From the sequence record OK428535.1: a stretch of 64,000 nt of DNA. One strand, 5' to 3'. Made by a program: the position numbers and the translations under genes. Below, piece by piece: positions 3,301 to 63,752 of the stretch (its first letter is position 1; the number at the start of each line of letters is the position of its first letter). The stretch comes from Escherichia phage vB_EcoM_Lh1B. The notes under the pieces were generated by a model. The model was not told the DNA's origin and made no database searches. It worked only from the letters and a program-made list of their open reading frames with translations.

Positions 3301-3584
3301 TGAAACTCGAAGGTTATATTGTTACTGATAAGCCGTTTGTTGAGGCTAACCTTTCACGTTCTCAAGTTGTCTATAAAGACATCGATGTCCCTGCTGAAAT
3401 TGTTAAAGCGAANCCCAGCTGGCNAATCAACCNCGTTTCTTTGGAAATCACNAANCCGTTTATCAACGANCCAACCGNCCCATTTGTCGACATGGGTAAT
3501 TTCCGCGAGATTCTTTCCCCGCATCAATACCAGACAGTTGCACAGAAGAAAGGGAAGCTGCTCATTGAAACGTTGAGTGTGTAG
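3300..3584 (+). CDS. hypothetical protein (94 aa)
   Basis: ATG overlaps upstream stop (TAATG); AAGGAG upstream; n-masked middle. Confidence 0.55.
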   Translation: MKLEGYIVTDKPFVEANLSRSQVVYKDIDVPAEIVKAXPSWXINXVSLEIXXPFINXPTXPFVDMGNFREILSPHQYQTVAQKKGKLLIETLSV

Positions 3585-3589
3585 TTTAT

Positions 3590-3630
3590 CTCCAGTAACC
3601 ACGAGGGTTACTGGAGTCCTCTTATTTTTT
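3590..3630 (+). terminator. intrinsic terminator
   Basis: CTCCAGTAACC-ACGAG-GGTTACTGGAG hairpin followed by TCCTCTTATTTTTT. Confidence 0.75.
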
Positions 3631-3663
3631 ACACTTAACTCAAATTAATTTGAGGTGTGGTAT

Positions 3664-4251
3664 ATGACAGAACGTATTTTACGACTGCAAGAGAACAAGT
3701 TAGAAGACCTGCACGTAATGCGTAGTCGTGGCTTGTTTCCGGTGGGGCTTGATGTGAGTGGATTATTAACTGCCGCAGAGCACGGGGATAGGGTCATTAC
3801 AATGCATTCGCGTGGGAGCGAAGTGGTCTCTGCGATTTTCATCGATAAGGTTATTCCAGACTCGGAAAGCGGTAGGGAGGCAGGACACATCATTTACGAA
3901 TACTTTCGCAGCATTCTATACGAGGAAAAGATAAATGTCAAAACTTTTATGGAGTACGCTAAGCGAAATAACTACATCGATGCGCGACTGATGGTCACGG
4001 AAGGCACCCCAACTATAAACGGTAAAGTCCATCATCGTTTACTTGGGGCGCAGTTGCCGAGACTGGGTGAGTTACCGACGNNGNTAGAGCTANACCAAAA
4101 AACAGATTGGCGACACAAAATCGAAGTGCTTCACAAGCTTTACGATTTATCGATCGTTCAAATCAAACTGGTGGACTTCACGCCTGCAAATATGCAAATC
4201 GCTAAGCGAGCATTGGGTTTTCGTATTCTTAACACAACCTTCACATTGTAA
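3664..4251 (+). CDS. hypothetical protein (195 aa)
   Basis: ORF track frame; start moved from GTG 3655 to ATG 3664 with TGAGGTG upstream. Confidence 0.65.
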   Translation: MTERILRLQENKLEDLHVMRSRGLFPVGLDVSGLLTAAEHGDRVITMHSRGSEVVSAIFIDKVIPDSESGREAGHIIYEYFRSILYEEKINVKTFMEYAKRNNYIDARLMVTEGTPTINGKVHHRLLGAQLPRLGELPTXXELXQKTDWRHKIEVLHKLYDLSIVQIKLVDFTPANMQIAKRALGFRILNTTFTL

Positions 4252-4256
4252 AATAT

Positions 4257-4283
4257 CTCAGATATATATTACCTAGGTGAGAG
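4257..4283 (+). promoter_or_regulatory. class A upstream motif (phage promoter-like)
   Basis: CTCAGATATATATTACCTAGGTGAGAG; near-identical copy at 62815-62840. Confidence 0.5.
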
Positions 4284-4303
4284 TTAAGAGATTAACTCAA
4301 CTG

Positions 4304-4331
4304 GCTACCCTCGGGTAGCCTATTCTTTTTT
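4304..4331 (+). terminator. intrinsic terminator
   Basis: GGCTACCC-TCG-GGTAGCC hairpin followed by TATTCTTTTTT. Confidence 0.75.
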
Positions 4332-4334
4332 AAA

Positions 4335-4350
4335 CCAATCGACTATAGAG
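4335..4350 (+). promoter_or_regulatory. class B upstream motif
   Basis: CCAATCGACTATAGAG directly after terminator T-run, about 20 nt before ATG. Confidence 0.4.
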
Positions 4351-4356
4351 TAAAAC

Positions 4357-4758
4357 ATGACTATCAAGAAGTTCTTACAAGCAGTAGTAGTTCTGGCCGC
4401 ATGTGGTATTGCAGCAACTTATGCTTTCGATAAGCCAGACGTGACTGAATACACATCAGCTGATTCGGATTATGGCATTGCACCGAATGAAAAACCGGAA
4501 CTGATGCGTGAGGTCGAACAGTTACAAATCTACAGACTGACGGACGGTAAGAACTGCACAGGGCTGGTTATCGCTGATAAGAAATTGAAAATGTATCAGC
4601 GGTTAATCGACATATCGTGCAATCAACCAAAAGTCACCTCGGTCAGTGTATCGCCACTGGAATTACCGAATTTGGTTGCTGTGAGCTTTTATCACAACGA
4701 TGTGCTCGTCGGTCGCATCACCCTCAATCGTGGAGATATCAAAAATGAAATGCAATAA
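4357..4758 (+). CDS. putative lipoprotein (133 aa)
   Basis: N-terminus MTIKKFLQAVVVLAAC with LAAC lipobox-like signal; preceded by terminator and conserved upstream motifs. Confidence 0.6.
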   Translation: MTIKKFLQAVVVLAACGIAATYAFDKPDVTEYTSADSDYGIAPNEKPELMREVEQLQIYRLTDGKNCTGLVIADKKLKMYQRLIDISCNQPKVTSVSVSPLELPNLVAVSFYHNDVLVGRITLNRGDIKNEMQ

Positions 4759-5236
4759 CGTCAATCGCCNCTTGGCCAAAGTGGTGCTTTTTACTGTGCT
4801 GTTGATGGCAGTTGTTGTTGGGCTACGGATTTCTAAGGCACGCGCTGACGAATTCAGCGGGTTCCAGGGCAGTATTAACGGCAGCATTCCAGCATATACC
4901 CGCACCATCAATCTTAATGATAAGCCGTTCTGGTGCAATGCGCGTAAGCTGCTTAAGAAACAGTGTCGTGTAGTTGACATATCCTTCAACGGTCGTGTCG
5001 CTATCGTACACCGTCCTGGCGATAAAGATTGCCCAGGTGGTTGGTGGGGTGCAGTCGACCGTCACAATGGTGACGCGTTATGGCTTATCCCTAATCGTGA
5101 TGAACTATCAGTGGAGAAAATTTGCAGCAAAGATTTCAGGGCCGGTTTTGTACAGCGACCGGATACCAAAACTCTGGCCTCCATCGCTATGTACTACGGT
5201 ATGGAAACCATCAAAACAATCGACTATTCAGAATAA
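4745..5236 (+). CDS. small exported/membrane-anchored 4-Cys protein (paralog family member)
   Basis: Start set to ATG 4745 (GGAG upstream, 14-nt overlap with previous gene); hydrophobic N-terminus; PFWC motif and 4 Cys shared with next gene. Confidence 0.6.
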   Translation: MKCNNVNRXLAKVVLFTVLLMAVVVGLRISKARADEFSGFQGSINGSIPAYTRTINLNDKPFWCNARKLLKKQCRVVDISFNGRVAIVHRPGDKDCPGGWWGAVDRHNGDALWLIPNRDELSVEKICSKDFRAGFVQRPDTKTLASIAMYYGMETIKTIDYSE

Positions 5237-5258
5237 CTCAAAAAATTGAGGTACTATT

Positions 5259-5669
5259 ATGAAACATTTTTTATTACCAGTTTTACTTGCTACTCTGGCC
5301 ATTAGCTTCTTCGCTCGCGCTGGAAGTATCGAGTTACCAAAAGTTGTTAACGATCACGAATACGGCGGGCCGTTCTGGTGCCAGAACTCTGACGTACAAG
5401 GCGGTAGCTGTCAGATCGTTGCGATGTCCGATAACAACCGTTACCTGTTAGTGAAAACGATGGGCGGTGTCGCATGTGGCGACCCTGAATACGGGGTTAT
5501 TAACATGGCAACAGGTCAGGCCGAATCCATGAACTACAATGATAACCAAGCCTGCAGTGGTGAAGCCGTTGCTGAGTTTACTCGCGACCCAGGTGATAAT
5601 GCCCTGACGGTTATCATGTACGACCCTACGATTAAGAAAAACGTGGGCATCAATAAACTCGACTTTTAA
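5259..5669 (+). CDS. small secreted 4-Cys protein (paralog family member)
   Basis: Signal-peptide-like MKHFLLPVLLATLAISFFARAGS; PFWC motif; 4 Cys. Confidence 0.65.
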   Translation: MKHFLLPVLLATLAISFFARAGSIELPKVVNDHEYGGPFWCQNSDVQGGSCQIVAMSDNNRYLLVKTMGGVACGDPEYGVINMATGQAESMNYNDNQACSGEAVAEFTRDPGDNALTVIMYDPTIKKNVGINKLDF

Positions 5670-5682
5670 GTAAGGAAACAAC

Positions 5683-6066
5683 ATGCGTGGACTTATGGGT
5701 ATTATCGCGGCGGTGTTCTTGACCGCTTCTGCTTCAGCTACAACCAGCGTAGAAGATTTACTGCCAGGCACACCGTATCAGTACAACCCGCCTTCATTCG
5801 AAGTCTGTACTGGCGACAATGGCAGATGTGAAGAAGTCAGCCGTCACGACGAGTATATCCTGGTCCACGCAAAGGGCGAGGAAACTTGTCCGGCTGGTTA
5901 CTACTTCTTGTTGAACTCAAAGGCACAAGAGATTGTGCCGGTAGAGACAATAACGTGCGACCCGACGCTTCGCGCGTCGCTCGCTTACAATACGAAAACC
6001 AAACAACGCCTCCTGGTTATTGAACAGCAAGGGGTGGTGCGTGGTTCAGTAGCGCTCGACCAGTAA
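5683..6066 (+). CDS. small secreted 4-Cys protein (paralog family member)
   Basis: Signal-peptide-like MRGLMGIIAAVFLTASASA; C-x7-C plus two further Cys; AAGGAAA upstream. Confidence 0.65.
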   Translation: MRGLMGIIAAVFLTASASATTSVEDLLPGTPYQYNPPSFEVCTGDNGRCEEVSRHDEYILVHAKGEETCPAGYYFLLNSKAQEIVPVETITCDPTLRASLAYNTKTKQRLLVIEQQGVVRGSVALDQ

Positions 6067-6077
6067 CCGAAAAGTTT

Positions 6078-6100
6078 TCAGACAGATGTTATAACGTGAG
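6078..6100 (+). promoter_or_regulatory. class A upstream motif, divergent copy
   Basis: TCAGACAGATGTTATAACGTGAG followed by small hairpin 6096-6117. Confidence 0.35.
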
Positions 6101-6122
6101 ATGACGACCCATCTCACTTTGG

Positions 6123-6166
6123 CCCTGCGGTGATTTCCCCAACACTTAGCCGCAGGGTCCTTTTTA
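6123..6166 (+). terminator. hairpin with T-run (terminator/attenuator-like, long loop)
   Basis: CCCTGCGG...CCGCAGGG stem with about 20-nt loop followed by TCCTTTTT. Confidence 0.4.
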
Positions 6167-6178
6167 ATCGACTATTAC
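6165..6178 (+). promoter_or_regulatory. class B upstream motif
   Basis: TAATCGACTATTAC after hairpin/T-run, before GTAAGGATT RBS region. Confidence 0.45.
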
Positions 6179-6195
6179 TCGTAAGGATTAAGCAA

Positions 6196-6696
6196 ATGAA
6201 CATGAACATTCTCGACGATACCCGTTCTTCTTTCTTTACTCAGATGAACGTCAATCCCGAACGTACCCNTGCCATTCTTTCCACTGGCTGGAAGTTAAAG
6301 CTGTTAGGCGAGTTAACCCTAAACCGCACCGACTGGCCAGAAGAAGCGACCGTATTGATTAACAGCATTCACAGCGAGTGGCTAGATGCTGCGTTGAATG
6401 CCCCACAACTACGTCCGTACTATCGGATGCTTCATGCGGGTTATGAAGTATACCGCAAAGGTTGGTACGCTGCAGCCACTTATTGCAAAACCCCTGAAGG
6501 TCGTGAAGACAACACTGTCGACCACGTATTAGTAAACAATTTCTGGGGCGACCAAATCGAAGTCTTACAACTTTCCACCGGNGACCGTATTCCGGCCTGT
6601 GAGTTATTCGAAACTAACGCACAAATGTACGAACCATATGCAATGATTCGTGGCCGTAAGGTCCCAATCATTTCCCTTATGCATATGGGGCTGTAA
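6196..6696 (+). CDS. hypothetical protein (166 aa)
   Basis: Start set to ATG 6196 downstream of hairpins and TTAATCGACTATTAC motif; track ORF starts further upstream at 6130. Confidence 0.6.
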   Translation: MNMNILDDTRSSFFTQMNVNPERTXAILSTGWKLKLLGELTLNRTDWPEEATVLINSIHSEWLDAALNAPQLRPYYRMLHAGYEVYRKGWYAAATYCKTPEGREDNTVDHVLVNNFWGDQIEVLQLSTXDRIPACELFETNAQMYEPYAMIRGRKVPIISLMHMGL

Positions 6697-6704
6697 ATAC
6701 GAGA

Positions 6705-6732
6705 GGTAGCCCGTAGGCTACCTTCTTTTTTT
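6705..6732 (+). terminator. intrinsic terminator
   Basis: GGTAGCC-CGTA-GGCTACC hairpin followed by TTCTTTTTTT. Confidence 0.75.
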
Positions 6733-6750
6733 GTTGAAGAAGGATTAAAC

Positions 6751-7377
6751 ATGAACGAGATTACCCTGATTCGTTTCATCGACGACATGGTGACGTGTCA
6801 GAAAGCGAATCGTCAGGATACCAAACTGCGTATCAATCTGATGGAAGAAGAGGTAGAAGGGTTTCTGGAATACCCGCGATTGGTGAAGTGGTTTAAAGAA
6901 GCGCTGCCGCGTAGCTGGGAACAGCTAGAAGCGTGGTTTGCTCTACCTATTGCAGAACGTAATCCCAATAATACGATCTTCACCGGAACTACTGCATTAG
7001 ATTTGGCTGGTTCGGTGGAGCAACCTAAACGTTTAGTTTTCTTCTACGTCAATGGCGATTCAATAATGGCTGATACAGTTAACTGGATTTCCGATGAGTT
7101 AACTGTAAACACCACTTTGGTCGGTAGCGCTGCTGATGCCTGGGTTGTTGGTCAGCACCAATCGCAACCGTACGAAGAAATCAAAACCGGTTATTTAATC
7201 CCGATATATCTCGACGGCGTGGCACCGGGTCGCAGCGCAGAACTGTTCAAATTCCTGCTTACTGAAACGTTAAAGGTTGTCGATTCTGATGCCGGGCGTG
7301 CGTGGTATGAATTAACCAAAGAGCGCACCGATAGTTTTTGGGAATCACTCGGACACCGTAAGTTTATTCCGCAATAA
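6751..7377 (+). CDS. hypothetical protein (208 aa)
   Basis: ORF track; bracketed by terminators; no clear Mre11 phosphoesterase motifs. Confidence 0.65.
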   Translation: MNEITLIRFIDDMVTCQKANRQDTKLRINLMEEEVEGFLEYPRLVKWFKEALPRSWEQLEAWFALPIAERNPNNTIFTGTTALDLAGSVEQPKRLVFFYVNGDSIMADTVNWISDELTVNTTLVGSAADAWVVGQHQSQPYEEIKTGYLIPIYLDGVAPGRSAELFKFLLTETLKVVDSDAGRAWYELTKERTDSFWESLGHRKFIPQ

Positions 7378-7388
7378 CTCTCCTCTCT

Positions 7389-7420
7389 GGAACCCTTCGG
7401 GGTTCCATTTNTTCTTTTTT
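7389..7420 (+). terminator. intrinsic terminator
   Basis: GGAACCC-TTCG-GGGTTCC hairpin followed by T-rich run. Confidence 0.75.
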
Positions 7421-7473
7421 ACGCATGACCTTTTGGATATGAACNNCTAATNCTTTCTCATTANAAGGCAAAC

Positions 7474-9984
7474 ATGCACAAGGTCGAACGTATCATTTTN
7501 AAAGNNTTTACCGGCATGGGGTTACATGAAANNNAAANNTTTGATTTCACCCTTAANTCAACCGTTACCANCATCCTCGGTGGCAACGGCTGCGGTAAAA
7601 CAAGCCTCCTGTCTGTTTTTCTCCCCTTAGCTCCAGCAAAATCAGAATTCCGTGAAGGTGGTTCCTACACTAACTACGCGTTAGTTGGGGACGACCGTCT
7701 TAAGTTTGAAGTCCTGCGTCGTGGCTCTTCTCTGTCTTGTAGTATTTTCAATATCACTAAAGGTGTCTCCATCGTAGACTCGGTAAACGCCAAAGTTTAC
7801 AACTCCATGGTGGAGCAATTAACCGGAATCACCAAAGAAATCAAAGAGTTAATTAATGGTGAGACCTTATTAACTGACGCCACTACCGAAGTTCGTCGTA
7901 AATGGTTTACGTTAATGTCAGAATCTGATCTGACGTACGTTGTTGGTTGCTATCGACGTTTGCGTAAACTCGCTTCCAGTTTAAGTGGGGCCATTGAGCA
8001 CACCGGCCGTAAAATCGGTGAGGCAAAAATGCGCGTGGTGGACGATGAAGAAGATCGTGCACGTTTAGAAGTTCGTTTGAAAGAACTCGATGCTGAGCTT
8101 CAGGAATTAAACCGCACAATTGAAGCGAGACCCGGTTTAGATAACGCCGTTTCGGTTGATAGTATCCGGAAACGCATTGCTTCGTTGCAACCGGCTGTAA
8201 AACTCATTATGGAACGTTATGGCGTTCTGCCTTCTGACGAACTGATTAACGAGTTTCAAAGTCGTGTGGTTGCCTGGCGTGAGCAAGCTGCCTCTGCTGA
8301 AACTGAATGCAACATGTACAATAAAGAGTTGTCACAGCTACTGGATGAGGAGTCGCGTCAAGCGTATCTGATGCGCAACCATACCGGTCTAAAACAAACA
8401 ATCGACAGCTTAAAACAGGAACTGGCAACGTTCCAACAGAACTGGATGTTCCCGGCTCTGTTTGAAGGTACCCGCATTGATGTGGATAGCATTCAGAACG
8501 CGTTAAACGATGCCTGTAACTGGAATTTACCGTTGTCCATGCATCTGGACCAGTTAAAGACAACAGATCGCCTGGGAGCGTTAGAGAAGCGTTTACAGGG
8601 TATGGATTTAACCTCTGCGGGTCTATCTGAAAAGCTGCAACGTTGTGAGAATGTGCTACACGGTTTATACCACGACCGTCAACACTTCTTAGAAACTGCA
8701 GAAGTTGATTGTCCACAGTGTAACCACCGTTTCCGTCCTGGGATTCGTAAGTCGTTACCTGAAATTGAAAAGGCCATCAACGATAATGAAGGTTGGAAGA
8801 AGCAGCTGAAAGACGAAATGGATAGTCTTTTGCGTGACCGCAAAGAGATTGAAGAGGACGTCCGTAGCTTACGTACGATTCGCGAAATCGTCATGTCGTA
8901 TTCCAACCATCCTGTTGTCGGTTTGTTTTTCCGTAAACTGCAGGAGCTGGATATCTTCACCACGGCGCGGGATCGTTACGGTGCCATTGCACGTGCCTTT
9001 ACTGAAGAGCTAGATTCGGCCATGATGTATCTGCGTCAATCGGCGAAGCTTGCAACAGCGGAACGGGAATGGCAAGAGGCTGTTGCCGCAGTAGGTAACG
9101 TTGATGGTGCGCTGAGCCAGAAAATTGAACATATCCGTTCACAACTGGACGGGGCTAACCGTCGACTGATAGAATACCGCAGACAAGCCAATGAGCTGGA
9201 ACGCGAAACCACCCAACTGCAACAAACCAAAGAAGCAATCGAACGTTTCCAAAAAGGCTACGAACATCTGGTATCGGAAATGAACATCTCCGTTAACAAC
9301 GTCGTGGTTCGTGAGTTGTTAAACCGACGCGAAGCGAAGCTCGATGCGTATACTTCAGCTCGTGAACGGTTTCGTCAAATGGAAGGGGCTATTGCACGTT
9401 TAGCGGAATTGGAAAAAGAGCAAGCTGAGTTGCTCAAAGAACACCATCNNGNCNGATTGATTATCAATGCCGTCTCACCCGAAAAAGGATTATTGCGTCG
9501 TTACTTTTATGCTGCGATTACCCGCATCATGGATTTAATGAATCGGTATATCGAAATGGTGTGGGCATATCCGATGCAGGTTATTCCATGCGATCTAACC
9601 GACGGGGATTTGGATTATACTTTCCCGGTGCGATTAAAAGACCATGAAGAACTGGTGCCGGATGTGAAGAAAGGTTCGAAGGCACAGCGTATTATCTTTA
9701 ACATGATGTTTCGTTTAACGGCGTATAAAGCGCTTGGTTTACAAAACTATCCTTTGTTNTTNGATNAANCCNCNNAAGGCATGGATGAANAACANAAAAA
9801 NCGCCTGGTCAACTTCTTTAAATCGTTGGNGTTGTTGGGGGAGTTTTCTNAANTGCTGGTCGTTTCGCATGAAGCGGAAGTTCATTCTAAACTTAACGAA
9901 GCCACCTACTGTGTCGTGGAGCCAGAAGGTGTAACGCTTCCACCGGTTTATAACGAAGGGGTAATAATCAAATATGCATCATAA
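7474..9984 (+). CDS. SbcC/Rad50-like SMC-family ATPase
   Basis: Walker A GGNGCGKTS near N-terminus; long predicted coiled-coil middle with CPQC (CxxC hook-like) near residue 410; C-terminal ...LVVSHEAEV after partly n-masked Walker B/signature region. Confidence 0.75.
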   Translation: MHKVERIIXKXFTGMGLHEXXXFDFTLXSTVTXILGGNGCGKTSLLSVFLPLAPAKSEFREGGSYTNYALVGDDRLKFEVLRRGSSLSCSIFNITKGVSIVDSVNAKVYNSMVEQLTGITKEIKELINGETLLTDATTEVRRKWFTLMSESDLTYVVGCYRRLRKLASSLSGAIEHTGRKIGEAKMRVVDDEEDRARLEVRLKELDAELQELNRTIEARPGLDNAVSVDSIRKRIASLQPAVKLIMERYGVLPSDELINEFQSRVVAWREQAASAETECNMYNKELSQLLDEESRQAYLMRNHTGLKQTIDSLKQELATFQQNWMFPALFEGTRIDVDSIQNALNDACNWNLPLSMHLDQLKTTDRLGALEKRLQGMDLTSAGLSEKLQRCENVLHGLYHDRQHFLETAEVDCPQCNHRFRPGIRKSLPEIEKAINDNEGWKKQLKDEMDSLLRDRKEIEEDVRSLRTIREIVMSYSNHPVVGLFFRKLQELDIFTTARDRYGAIARAFTEELDSAMMYLRQSAKLATAEREWQEAVAAVGNVDGALSQKIEHIRSQLDGANRRLIEYRRQANELERETTQLQQTKEAIERFQKGYEHLVSEMNISVNNVVVRELLNRREAKLDAYTSARERFRQMEGAIARLAELEKEQAELLKEHHXXXLIINAVSPEKGLLRRYFYAAITRIMDLMNRYIEMVWAYPMQVIPCDLTDGDLDYTFPVRLKDHEELVPDVKKGSKAQRIIFNMMFRLTAYKALGLQNYPLXXDXXXXGMDEXXKXRLVNFFKSLXLLGEFSXXLVVSHEAEVHSKLNEATYCVVEPEGVTLPPVYNEGVIIKYAS

Positions 9985-13085: not shown

Positions 13086-13536
13086 CGCGCCTGAGCGCTT
13101 CAAGGTCGTTACAGTTAACTGTGTTGGTGCAATGGGAAGGGGCATTGCCTTGGCGTGCCGAGAACGCTTCCCATCGCTTTATAATGACTATCGCCAGAAA
13201 TGTCGTAAAGAGCAAATCGTTATCGGTGAGGTCTATTGTTATCCTGAGGAAGGGGTAATACTCCTTCCTACTAAAACCCATTTTCGCTATAAATCGCAGA
13301 TTTACTATGTCACGTCCGGCATTGATGCGCTGGCGCGACTAGGGGAAGACTTAGAAGGAGGGATTGCGATACCNCCCCTAGGGATGGCTAACGGTTGGTT
13401 ACGTTACCATGAGCGATTGGAAATCTTTATACACTTACAGAAACGACTACAGCACACGGAGCAGACTTATCGATTCTATTTACCAGACACCCTGCTGAGG
13501 GAAGCAGAGAAAATCATCCCAAAAAGTTTCAAATAG
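13036..13536 (+). CDS. macrodomain protein, TARG1/DarG-like
   Basis: DLFNAPERFKVVTVNCVGAMGRGIALACRERFP...IGEVYCYPEEGVILLPTK...GGIAI.PLGMANGWL lines up by eye with the TARG1-type block DLFxCP...C....RMGAGIA...FKKKF...GEV...TK...P.IGCG. Confidence 0.65.
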   Translation: MSLELIDEAIISHDLFNAPERFKVVTVNCVGAMGRGIALACRERFPSLYNDYRQKCRKEQIVIGEVYCYPEEGVILLPTKTHFRYKSQIYYVTSGIDALARLGEDLEGGIAIXPLGMANGWLRYHERLEIFIHLQKRLQHTEQTYRFYLPDTLLREAEKIIPKSFK

Positions 13537-25298: not shown

Positions 25299-25303
25299 TT
25301 AAA

Positions 25304-25338
25304 CGGACACTCTTCGGGGTGTCCGTAGTTTTATTTTA
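25304..25338 (+). terminator. intrinsic terminator
   Basis: CGGACAC-TCTTCGG-GGTGTCCG hairpin followed by TAGTTTTATTTT. Confidence 0.75.
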
Positions 25339-25352
25339 ATCGACCATTAATC
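25337..25352 (+). promoter_or_regulatory. class B upstream motif
   Basis: TAATCGACCATTAATC directly after terminator T-run. Confidence 0.45.
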
Positions 25353-25366
25353 TAAAGGAGTATTAA

Positions 25367-26290
25367 ATGGACAGCTTTCTTTTTGATTTGGCAGAATCGG
25401 TAAATGTAGATGTAATCGGTATGCGCGAATCCCCGAGTAATTTCTTAAACGGTCTTACTAAAATCGACGAACGTGTGAAATCCAGAAGTGGAGATCCCGC
25501 CATCATCGAGCAATACGCAATAGCCCATTGTGGCGAGATAGGCCAGCACTTTATACCGATTGAGGCGTTCCTAAAGAACTGCTTCGCCGAAGAATGCACC
25601 GCAGACTTCCTGTCTCTTGCCTACGGCTGGCGATACGGGGGTATCCAAATGGAATTTGATCTTAATATTTTTGAACAAGTTCTACTTGGCGACGTTCTCA
25701 CTGAGATACCACGCAGCTGGATAGACAAGATTCCCGGTTGGGCCGTCTCCTTTTCAGTGTGCTATCGCGCTAAAGATATCGGTATCCAAGAAAAGACTTA
25801 CGTTTTCGGTCGGCGAATGTTTAAAGGGAAAGATTGTTTAACAATGATGATTTTTGGAAAACGTATCGAGGGGGAAACCTTTGAAATCGTGGACGTGGGT
25901 GACGGCTTTGTATCCTTGCGTGTGGCGGAAACTGGTACGCCGGCCAATGAGAAAACGTTACGCATTGTCGGCGCTACCATGTTTACATTCTCACTGATCC
26001 CGCACAACCCTACACCCGTCAAACTGAGACAATTAACTGGAAAGAAACGTATCGCCAATTACCACATTGAACCAAAATCTAAACCGACTGTCCTCTCCAC
26101 CGTAAAAGCACAAAGCGAGTATCTTGAAGAATTTGATACTGATACGGAGAAAAGAACACAAGGTAGCAGATGTGCGCATATGCGTCGTGCACACTGGTGT
26201 ACTTACTGGCTCGGTCCACGTGACGGGAATCGGACAAAGATTTTGAAATGGATACCGCCGACATTTGTCAACGGTTCTAAATGCAAATAA
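25367..26290 (+). CDS. hypothetical protein (307 aa)
   Basis: AAAGGAG upstream; Cys/His-containing C-terminus; ends at bidirectional terminator. Confidence 0.7.
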   Translation: MDSFLFDLAESVNVDVIGMRESPSNFLNGLTKIDERVKSRSGDPAIIEQYAIAHCGEIGQHFIPIEAFLKNCFAEECTADFLSLAYGWRYGGIQMEFDLNIFEQVLLGDVLTEIPRSWIDKIPGWAVSFSVCYRAKDIGIQEKTYVFGRRMFKGKDCLTMMIFGKRIEGETFEIVDVGDGFVSLRVAETGTPANEKTLRIVGATMFTFSLIPHNPTPVKLRQLTGKKRIANYHIEPKSKPTVLSTVKAQSEYLEEFDTDTEKRTQGSRCAHMRRAHWCTYWLGPRDGNRTKILKWIPPTFVNGSKCK

Positions 26291-61841: not shown

Positions 61842-62141
61842 ATGAAGGTCGTTAACATCGCAATACCTCCGACCCTTCGTTGTTTGACGCCGGAAGAACT
61901 GAAAGCGTTAGCGATCTACGCTATCCAAGGAAAGGCTGGTAAAGAAGTGCTTGCCGAAATCTTATCGAAACGTTTTGATACAAAACGCAAGGTTAATAAC
62001 ATTATCTCCGGAATCGCGTCGCTAGATATCATGGCACTCTATTGCGACATTAAAGAGGCTGGAGTGACAATCGACTATCGCCGTACTTACTTTCTACTCA
62101 CTGAGCCGTATCGTTCGAATATGGCAATAAAGCAGATGTAA
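61842..62141 (+). CDS. hypothetical protein (99 aa)
   Basis: ATG 61842 with TAGGGGGA upstream. Confidence 0.55.
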   Translation: MKVVNIAIPPTLRCLTPEELKALAIYAIQGKAGKEVLAEILSKRFDTKRKVNNIISGIASLDIMALYCDIKEAGVTIDYRRTYFLLTEPYRSNMAIKQM

Positions 62142-62194
62142 TTTTTTACATGACGTTGGTTTCATGTGTTGGGGAACAAAATAAGGACAAGAAA

Positions 62195-62743: not shown

Positions 62744-62752
62744 GCTCTACTA

Positions 62753-62796
62753 GGCTCATCCTATCTTCGGATACGGGTGAGCCTTTTTATTTTATT
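62753..62796 (+). terminator. intrinsic terminator
   Basis: GGCTCATCC...GGGTGAGCC stem (one mismatch) followed by TTTTTATTTTATT. Confidence 0.6.
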
Positions 62797-62814: not shown

Positions 62815-62840
62815 CTGAGATATATATTACTTAGGTGAGC
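62815..62840 (+). promoter_or_regulatory. class A upstream motif (phage promoter-like)
   Basis: CTGAGATATATATTACTTAGGTGAGC; downstream of terminator, followed by hairpin AGCGTTA-CACG-TAACGCT (62838-62856). Confidence 0.5.
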
Positions 62841-62856
62841 GTTACACGTTAACGCT

Positions 62857-62872
62857 TTAATCGACTATTACC
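62857..62872 (+). promoter_or_regulatory. class B upstream motif
   Basis: TTAATCGACTATTACC after hairpin, before GAAGGAG RBS. Confidence 0.45.
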
Positions 62873-62889
62873 CAGAAGGAGTATTTACA

Positions 62890-63736: not shown

Positions 63737-63752
63737 TAATCGACCATTATCG
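63737..63752 (+). promoter_or_regulatory. class B upstream motif
   Basis: TTAATCGACCATTATC about 15 nt before the TAAGGAA RBS of the HD-domain gene. Confidence 0.45.

Follow-up and report, generated by a model that had tools for sequence, protein, structure and literature searches.

Within a window of 64,000 nucleotides (nt) from Escherichia phage vB_EcoM_Lh1B (sequence record OK428535.1; by "the window" we mean this whole stretch), we examined two leaders, at 4257-4356 and 6078-6195, in which a promoter-like motif (class A), a small hairpin, a terminator hairpin and a second motif (class B) follow one another ahead of a gene. The explanation that we favor, at somewhat better than even odds (about 0.55), is that both are copies of a repeated early-promoter cassette whose transcripts would undergo constitutive, leaky premature termination in their 5' untranslated region (5'UTR), at a terminator that the upstream unit uses as well. 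The elements that an earlier note on this DNA had described at 4257, 6078 and 62815 were all found there, and we refer to these places as sites 1, 2 and 3.

Judged by its sequence, the window comes from an SPN3US-like jumbo phage (Seoulvirus, Chimalliviridae), that is, a nucleus-forming, phiKZ-like phage. Over positions 3600-9000 it shares 95-99% identity with SPN3US and with ~40 related jumbo phages of Salmonella, Escherichia, Proteus and Erwinia, the counterpart of the window in SPN3US spans about 160.6-224.6 kb, and the annotated virion RNA polymerase genes gp240/241 fall within it. The genome-wide motif census reported below covered the whole SPN3US genome.

Class A and the order of the cassettes

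The two leaders are composed of the following parts.

Site 1
4249-4251, + strand: stop codon of the upstream gene
4257-4281, + strand: class A1 CTCAGATATATATTACCTAGGTGAG, predicted early promoter for the virion RNA polymerase, with the core TATATTAC at 4265-4272
4281-4287 / 4292-4298, + strand: small hairpin GAGTTAA / TTAACTC, 7 bp, loop GAGA; predicted to be the stem-loop at the 5' terminus of the early transcript
4303-4309 / 4314-4320, + strand: terminator stem GGCTACC / GGTAGCC, 7 bp, GC-rich, with a tetraloop; -13.1 kcal/mol alone, pair probability 0.996
4321-4331, + strand: T-run TATTCTTTTTT after the terminator (U-tract given as UAUUCUUUUUU)
4337-4346, + strand: class B AATCGACTAT, 10 nt upstream of ATG 4357
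4357-4758, + strand: gp180 homologue, the downstream gene

Site 2
6064-6066, + strand: stop codon of the upstream gene
6079-6100, + strand: class A variant CAGACAGATGTTATAACGTGAG, predicted early promoter, with GATGTTAT (6085-6092) in place of TATATTAC
6096-6103 / 6110-6117, + strand: small hairpin, 8 bp, 6-nt loop
6121-6131 / 6149-6159, + strand: terminator, 11-bp GC-rich stem with a 17-nt loop, -20.2 kcal/mol, followed by T5 at 6161-6165
6166-6175, + strand: class B, followed by the Shine-Dalgarno (SD) sequence AAGGA at 6183-6187
6196, + strand: ATG of the gp184 homologue, the downstream gene

Class A, whose consensus is TTTCAGATATATATTACYTAGGTGAG, matches published phiKZ-like early-promoter strings along its entire length. 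Predicted strings of this kind are tabulated in the paper on phage N1M2, for N1M2 itself (TBYAWWWWWTTTCARRYAKATATTATYWAAGTGWA; TTTCARRYAKATATTATYWAAGTGWA), OBP and 201phi2-1, with TATATTAC for phiKZ. Their AT-rich core (TATATTAC or ATATTAT) is present at 4265-4272 and 62823-62830 and, in the variant form GATGTTAT, at 6085-6092, and the extended consensus, with TTTCARR upstream and GTG downstream, was found at site 1 (TCTCAGAT...GGTGAG), site 2 (TTTTCAGAC...CGTGAG) and site 3 (AACTGAGAT...GGTGAG). In the window we counted two copies of the 18-mer class A core, where 0.03 would be expected. Across SPN3US the strict form, A1, has seven copies and a looser form, A2 (GATAGATATTATCT), about 12, located 40-73 nt upstream of start codons and usually after a T-run; A2 copies precede gp34/35 and gp76/77, which encode non-virion RNA polymerase subunits, and A-type motifs also stand ahead of many small genes of unknown function. 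In phiKZ, the non-virion RNA polymerase genes are early (PMC4666361).

Class A thus shares with the described phiKZ-like early promoters both the AT-rich core with its extended pattern (TTTCAGAT...ATATTAC/T...GTG here) and the place ahead of small unknown-function and non-virion polymerase genes, in a phage that encodes a virion polymerase. Unlike them, the strict sub-class TATATATTACYTAGGTGAG is here always accompanied by a downstream hairpin and class B, a combination of which we found no description in the literature examined. We therefore regard class A as a probable member of this known early-promoter family, read by the virion RNA polymerase; the earlier note had considered that it might be a promoter, and the fit to the published strings, together with the genomic context, supports this. 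Reviews and transcript maps place the start site ~10 nt after the center of the AT-rich core, so that the predicted starts are ~4277-4279 at site 1, ~6096-6098 at site 2 and ~62835-62837 at site 3, each within GTGAG. Scans with the sigma-70 consensus yielded no match within class A or class B, a nearby match (4252-4225) being on the opposite strand; a host sigma-70 promoter at these motifs was rejected on this account and because the motif fits the phage-polymerase consensus.

The class A copy that had been reported at 6078 does exist, but as a common sub-variant (GATGTTAT) and not as the plain motif. It is invariant in 4 phages, compared with two relatives its spacer is short by 1 nt, and GATGTTAT variants were found before other SPN3US genes as well. 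A2-type motifs (RATAGATATTAT) also occur in the window at 13532 (upstream of the endolysin region), 22624 and 31162, ~40-50 nt upstream of genes and without a 5' hairpin or class B.

The usual order of a cassette is terminator, class A, hairpin, class B, SD sequence, ATG, and site 3 conforms to it.

Site 3
62752-62784, + strand: upstream terminator, with a U-run (to 62793); -21 kcal/mol, folding z -5.7
62815-62839, + strand: class A1, core TATATTAC at 62823-62830
62837-62857, + strand: small hairpin
62859-62868, + strand: class B
62876-62881, + strand: SD sequence
62890, + strand: ATG of the gp249 homologue, the downstream gene

The order at 62815 indeed differs from that at 4257 and 6078, as had been remarked, but it is 62815 that is normal and the other two that are exceptional. 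No terminator separates class A from the gene in six of the SPN3US A1 cassettes (gp5, 55, 66, 101, 135 and 249). Five of these six have a terminator or T-run ahead of class A instead, and the distance from class A to the following start codon is a fixed 64-73 nt. A strong terminator between the hairpin and class B was found only in the gp180 and gp184 cassettes, those of sites 1 and 2. At both of these sites the upstream gene ends just 6-12 nt before class A, so that the terminator of the upstream unit has effectively been shifted beyond the promoter. A weaker third copy of the exceptional layout lies close by, all three falling within one 6-kb cluster.

727-850, + strand: weaker exceptional leader, upstream of the gp175 homologue (ATG 847)
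736-756, + strand: A-like motif GATAGATGTCAT..GTGAG
753-783, + strand: 5' hairpin
790-810, + strand: AU-rich hairpin with a U-run, followed by an SD sequence

This third leader (727-850) contains no class B.

Terminators and hairpins in the leaders

At both exceptional sites the second hairpin is a stable, GC-rich one followed by a U-tract, as expected of an intrinsic terminator, and so, given the predicted start, transcripts from class A would meet a well-formed terminator before reaching the gene, much as the earlier note had proposed. Folding of the leader RNAs, which that note had called for, gave two independent hairpins per leader, with the minimum free energy and centroid structures identical, and the RNA from class A to the terminator had a folding z of -3.9 at site 1 and -6.8 at site 2. 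At site 1, the terminator is thus predicted both to end the gp179 unit upstream and to sit in the 5'UTR of the class A transcript.

These arrangements are conserved. The full order of site 2 (class A, hairpin, terminator, class B, SD) is kept in phages SPAsTU and pEa_SNUABM_29 at 82-87% identity, and its terminator stem carries compensatory changes, from U:A to C:G in SPAsTU and from G:U to G:C in pEa_SNUABM_29. The order A1, hairpin, terminator of site 1 is likewise kept in these two phages; its terminator is retained in SPN3US and pEa_SNUABM_29 and, with a G:U-preserving change, in SPAsTU, and the more distant phage Huxley has just a T-rich stretch after the hairpin. In SPAsTU and pEa_SNUABM_29, moreover, an open reading frame (ORF) of 79 amino acids lies directly behind the site 1 terminator, and its protein is conserved (49% identity, no frameshift). 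We found no class B or other promoter-like motif ahead of this ORF in either phage, and since the gene can be reached only through the terminator, the latter is probably leaky or bypassed; leakiness is in this way inferred indirectly, from a gene of the relatives. In the loop of the site 2 terminator (6132-6148) we also observed the sequence UCCCCAACAC, which is invariant in four phages despite differing flanking loop bases, and the gp5 cassette of SPN3US has a similar sequence, TTCCCCCAAC, in the interval from the hairpin to class B. This C-rich loop could be functional, or it could be a remnant of shared cassette ancestry.

The small hairpin was assessed by scanning IMG/VR for exact matches to the A1 17-mer, which returned 85 loci that collapsed to 65 distinct units, 43 in a chimallivirus context and 22 unrelated matches that served as controls. 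With its anchor at the G after GGT, a stem of 6 or more of 7 pairs was present in 37 of the 43 distinct cassettes; after swapping of the 5' arms between units (200 trials) the number was 26.7 on average and never above 32 of 43. Mean folding z was -2.2 in cassettes versus -0.7 in unrelated matches. The stem sequences vary (GAGATTGC/GTAATCTT, GAGCGTTA/TAACGCTT, GAACTTGC/GTAAGTTT and others), the loops, of 3-8 nt, are conserved among cassettes in neither sequence nor length, and a G:U pair stands first in half of the distinct stems, a sign of an RNA rather than a DNA structure. Pairing is also maintained between orthologues: at site 2 a compensatory change from U:A to C:G was found in SPAsTU, and in the site 3 orthologues of pEa_SNUABM_29 and phiEaH2 the hairpin sequence has been replaced with pairing retained, while class A and class B are kept. 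Most class A cassettes with the small hairpin have no downstream terminator; the hairpin is generic to nearly all class A cassettes and is not specially tied to terminators. It starts 2-4 nt after the predicted start site and is most plausibly, as we infer from this position, a 5'-terminal stem-loop that would protect or stabilize the 5' end.

Taken together, we propose that class A would be used by the virion RNA polymerase injected along with the DNA, that at site 1 transcription would start at about G4277-G4279, and that the RNA would begin with the small hairpin, protecting its 5' end. The terminator would then do double duty, ending the upstream unit and also stopping most class A transcripts, to give short two-hairpin RNAs of ~50-55 nt at site 1 and ~68-70 nt at site 2, while a minority would read through into the genes. 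The outcome would be a lowered early expression of the gp180-183 and gp184 genes, with no RNA switch involved; class B would act either as a second start signal, restoring expression past the terminator, or as a recognition site in the mRNA leader.

Several points weigh against this proposal. In the literature searched we found no Seoulvirus transcript map, no SPN3US transcriptome or time-course paper and no mapped Seoulvirus transcript ends, so that start site, termination efficiency and polymerase are all deduced from sequence. The virion RNA polymerase might ignore intrinsic terminators, in which case early read-through would be complete. The exceptional order is seen at only 2-3 of about 21 SPN3US A-type sites, and it may be a side effect of gene packing that is tolerated, and not a control that was selected. 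As for the small hairpin, many normal cassettes carry a run of U3-5 after it, which leaves room for a role other than 5'-end protection, and the arm-swap controls scored high because the 5' arms are alike, making the covariation among paralogues moderate evidence.

The class B box

Class B (AATCGACYAT) was found 10 times in the window with at most one mismatch, against 4.1 expected, a count that none of 100 shuffles reached. In SPN3US, AATCGACYAT(TA) has 11 exact copies, all on the + strand, against roughly 0.5 expected, an estimate from genome size and motif length. The copies stand in three contexts: after A1 and the hairpin; directly after a terminator (4337, 6166 and 25338); and inside early-type operons (5218 and 63738 in the window, gp56 and gp131 in SPN3US). 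The following copies lack class A.

5218-5227, + strand: class B, in the same operon as site 1, upstream of the gp182 homologue
5259, + strand: ATG of the gp182 homologue
25303-25326, + strand: strong terminator, followed by class B at 25338-25347, an SD sequence and ATG 25367
63738-63747, + strand: class B AATCGACCAT, upstream of the gp251 homologue

The gene behind the copy at 25338 (within 25303-25369) is a 307-amino-acid ORF (phrog_6160, unknown function), SPN3US having no + strand gene there, and it has the appearance of a gene inserted at the border of a cassette. One further exact copy in the window, at 62069-62078, lies in the coding sequence of the gp247 homologue, is not conserved in pEa_SNUABM_29 or phiEaH2 and was set aside as probably due to chance.

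Class B lies 10-31 nt upstream of the ATG in SPN3US, and in the Erwinia-phage lineages GACYAT is 1 nt from the SD sequence. The ribosome-binding site that the earlier note had placed after class B is AAGGA at site 2 and is weak at site 1, where it consists of just GAG (4348-4350). The sequence of the box is conserved across genera while that of the adjacent hairpin is replaced. In SPAsTU and pEa_SNUABM_29 it directly precedes the gp180 homologue (protein identity 71%), behind the inserted 79-amino-acid gene; having stayed with the gp180 start despite this insertion, it belongs to the gene start and not to the promoter-terminator module. Inspection by eye for complementarity to the 3' end of 16S rRNA, or for the symmetry of a palindromic operator, revealed nothing convincing, and in a scan of viral contigs for class B followed by an SD sequence the pattern was unspecific, with most matches unrelated.

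Class B may be a start signal, to which we would give about one chance in three, or, with about the same tentative weight, a recognition site in the mRNA or for translation; what remains goes to something else. The former possibility takes its most explicit form in a tandem-promoter arrangement, in which class B would be a further promoter class with its TAT abutting the start site, the early promoter being insulated and the gene driven from class B. We hold this possible but short of probable. It would account for the box directly following the terminator U-run at 4337, 6166 and 25338, for the variable leader of 10-31 nt, natural for a promoter, and for the constancy of the box across genera beside a changing hairpin, and it has parallels: the late promoters of phiKZ have TATG abutting the start site, and an early promoter combined with a second one is known for PHIKZ054 and for the continuously expressed genes of AR9. 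Against it, SPN3US already holds phiKZ-like middle (TTTTTTAC) and late (AGTATGA) motifs, class B is restricted to early-type gene clusters, its position 1 nt from the SD sequence in the Erwinia lineages leaves room for a start site only at its edge, and the exact internal copy at 62069 has not been kept in relatives.

The same separate motifs led us to reject class B as a phiKZ-type late or middle promoter and make it a fourth motif. In SPN3US, AGTATGA/TATG-like motifs lie 20-40 nt upstream of structural-gene starts (gp256/257, gp170/171, gp262/263 and gp173), as phiKZ-type late promoters do. The motif TTTTTTAC resembles the middle-promoter motif of phiKZ, AAanTTACc (PMC4666361). In the window, TTTTTTAC(G) stands right after terminators and upstream of genes at 252, 3625, 7415, 11647, 15267 and 62142, and the copy at 62142 is kept in pEa_SNUABM_29 and phiEaH2. 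The window contains 315 scattered N positions (e.g. 1901-1948, 3413-3478, 7411-7571 and 9449-9850), some of them in ORFs, and one, at 7418, sits in the TTTTTTAC promoter-like region near 7415.

Other readings, known systems and significance

Another explanation retains the early promoter but makes the terminator polymerase-specific: it would stop only the polymerase of the upstream unit, for instance the non-virion enzyme, while the virion polymerase ignored it, so that the layout would reflect compact packing and early expression would be normal. The upstream unit has the following features.

3590-3616, + strand: terminator hairpin (-18.3 kcal/mol, z -4.7), then TTTTTTAC at 3625-3632; start of the gp179-homologue unit
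3664-4251, + strand: gp179 homologue, a single-gene unit, upstream neighbor of site 1

With a middle-like TTTTTTAC after its own terminator, the gp179 homologue looks like a unit of its own, probably of another temporal class and in need of a terminator at this place; the upstream stop codons, 6-12 nt before class A, leave no space for a terminator at the normal position; and in relatives the 79-amino-acid gene behind the terminator has to be expressed. Normal early cassettes, however, are bounded by the same type of terminator, which suggests that early transcripts do end there, and strong termination just past promoters is seen in phiKZ and 201phi2-1, the promoter class being unstated in those cases. 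We consider this explanation unlikely.

Attenuation or antitermination control, which the earlier note had suggested, applies in the loose sense that a leaky terminator lies ahead of the gene, but not in the sense of regulation by RNA refolding, the two hairpins being independent. When the 3' arm of the terminator was blocked in either leader, its 5' arm stayed unpaired and the small hairpin was unchanged, giving no antiterminator fold, and a search of Rfam with 3900-6600 returned no match at E <= 1. The leaders do contain ORFs, an ATG-started one of 10 codons at 6101-6133 and a GTG-started one from 4278; leader-peptide attenuation was rejected, as 1-nt indels in SPN3US and pEa_SNUABM_29 shift their frames and transcription is compartmentalized, early and late transcription in the phiKZ-like family proceeding inside compartments. 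With independent hairpins, no alternative pairing, lost frames and no Rfam match, attenuation by refolding or leader translation is not supported.

There remains a regulated form in which a phage or host factor, or a nut/put-like action of the small hairpin, would switch the leader terminator and turn the genes on conditionally or at particular times. The exceptional order is conserved across species and relatives have a real gene that can be expressed only if the terminator is passed; antitermination in such phages is a speculation put forward by the authors of the 201phi2-1 study, and most 5'UTR terminators in the study of phiKZ and five other phages show two discrete read-through modes. A nut/put site, however, would require an RNA element conserved in sequence, such as the boxB loop, and the hairpin loops vary among cassettes; the hairpin is also found in cassettes without a terminator; and the absence of mutually exclusive structures, of a conserved leader ORF and of an Rfam family, together with the improbability of translation coupling under compartmentalized transcription, points the same way. 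A factor may still act here, with no sequence sign pointing to one, though no search aimed at an antiterminator protein was made, and we think regulated control of this kind distinctly improbable.

Similarly low is the probability that we attach to a more speculative alternative, namely that the modules of class A, hairpin and terminator are dedicated genes for trans-acting, very early RNAs of ~55 and ~70 nt, with class B an undescribed fourth regulatory signal. The injected polymerase would make these RNAs within the first minutes, the UCCCCAACAC loop could possibly pair with Shine-Dalgarno sequences, or Hfq could be titrated, and class B would represent either a novel class of promoter or a recognition box in the mRNA, peculiar to the Seoulvirus, Erskinevirus and Machinavirus group. 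Finally, the earlier note's alternative that class A, instead of being a promoter, signals the 3' end, processing or termination of the upstream unit, which at sites 1 and 2 could invoke its position directly after the upstream stop codon and ahead of the terminator, is hardly credible and was rejected, since in five of six normal SPN3US cassettes class A comes after the T-run or terminator, since its distance to the following start codon is a fixed 64-73 nt, and since it fits the published early-promoter consensus and precedes non-virion polymerase genes.

The favored reading, leaky premature termination in the 5'UTR, has close precedents. By ONT-cappable-seq, 42 terminators were located inside 5'UTRs in phiKZ and five other Pseudomonas phages. 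At P112/T102 of phiKZ, >90% of transcripts stop in the 5'UTR to give a 71-nt RNA, confirmed by northern blot, and 201phi2-1 produces eight short RNAs by premature termination in 5'UTRs. As in these cases, a terminator here lies tens of nucleotides past a promoter, ahead of the gene, and a dominant short RNA with a minority of full-length transcripts is the expected outcome. The precedents come from transcript mapping, the Seoulvirus case from sequence alone; the terminator here also serves the upstream unit, and the short RNA would comprise approximately just the two hairpins. The core idea of a terminator inside a phage 5'UTR has thus already been shown experimentally, and the layout appears to be its Seoulvirus counterpart, with modest novelty. 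More original are the conserved three-part cassette of promoter, 5' hairpin and box by the ribosome-binding site, which extends across several genera, and the class B box itself.

Comparison with other systems brings out these parts. The PeSLs of T4-like phages (composite terminator/early-promoter cassettes) are a possible parallel, being short, numerous in each genome and located beside small variable genes; SPN3US has at least seven cassettes, and here too insertions seem to fall exactly at cassette borders, namely the 79-amino-acid ORF in SPAsTU, between the terminator and class B, and the 307-amino-acid ORF behind a terminator and class B. PeSL promoters, however, are read by the host sigma-70 polymerase and those considered here presumably by a phage polymerase, and the PeSL stem-loop is the terminator, whereas here there is an additional transcript hairpin and a separate box by the ribosome-binding site. 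The dual-class promoters of PHIKZ054 (early and middle) and of the continuously expressed AR9 genes (early and late) similarly place two distinct conserved motifs in tandem before one gene, but class B fits neither the middle AAanTTACc nor the late TATG of phiKZ, and both kinds are found elsewhere in the genome. Stem-loops at the 5' terminus, of the ompA type, stabilize bacterial mRNAs. The small hairpin resembles them in lying no more than a few nt from the predicted 5' end and in being conserved in structure rather than sequence, and differs in the short U-run that follows many of its copies, which is not an ompA-type feature.

The proteins encoded downstream of the cassettes matched only unknown-function families in PHROGs and had no match in Pfam. 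The N-terminus of the gp180 homologue (4357-4410; MTIKKFLQAVVVLAACG) has a signal peptide with a lipobox-like LAAC, the cysteine of which is absent in the SPAsTU homologue, and the gp182 homologue (from 5259) has a signal-peptide-like start as well.

SPN3US-like phages are a genetic model for giant nucleus-forming phages, and the analysis yields a practical definition, by sequence, of their early promoters and predicts two or three places where early transcription would be cut short. Cassettes with and without an internal terminator offer a natural comparison with which to ask whether the injected virion polymerase obeys intrinsic terminators. If class B is a true start signal or a translation-control site, it would represent a regulatory layer not seen in phiKZ.

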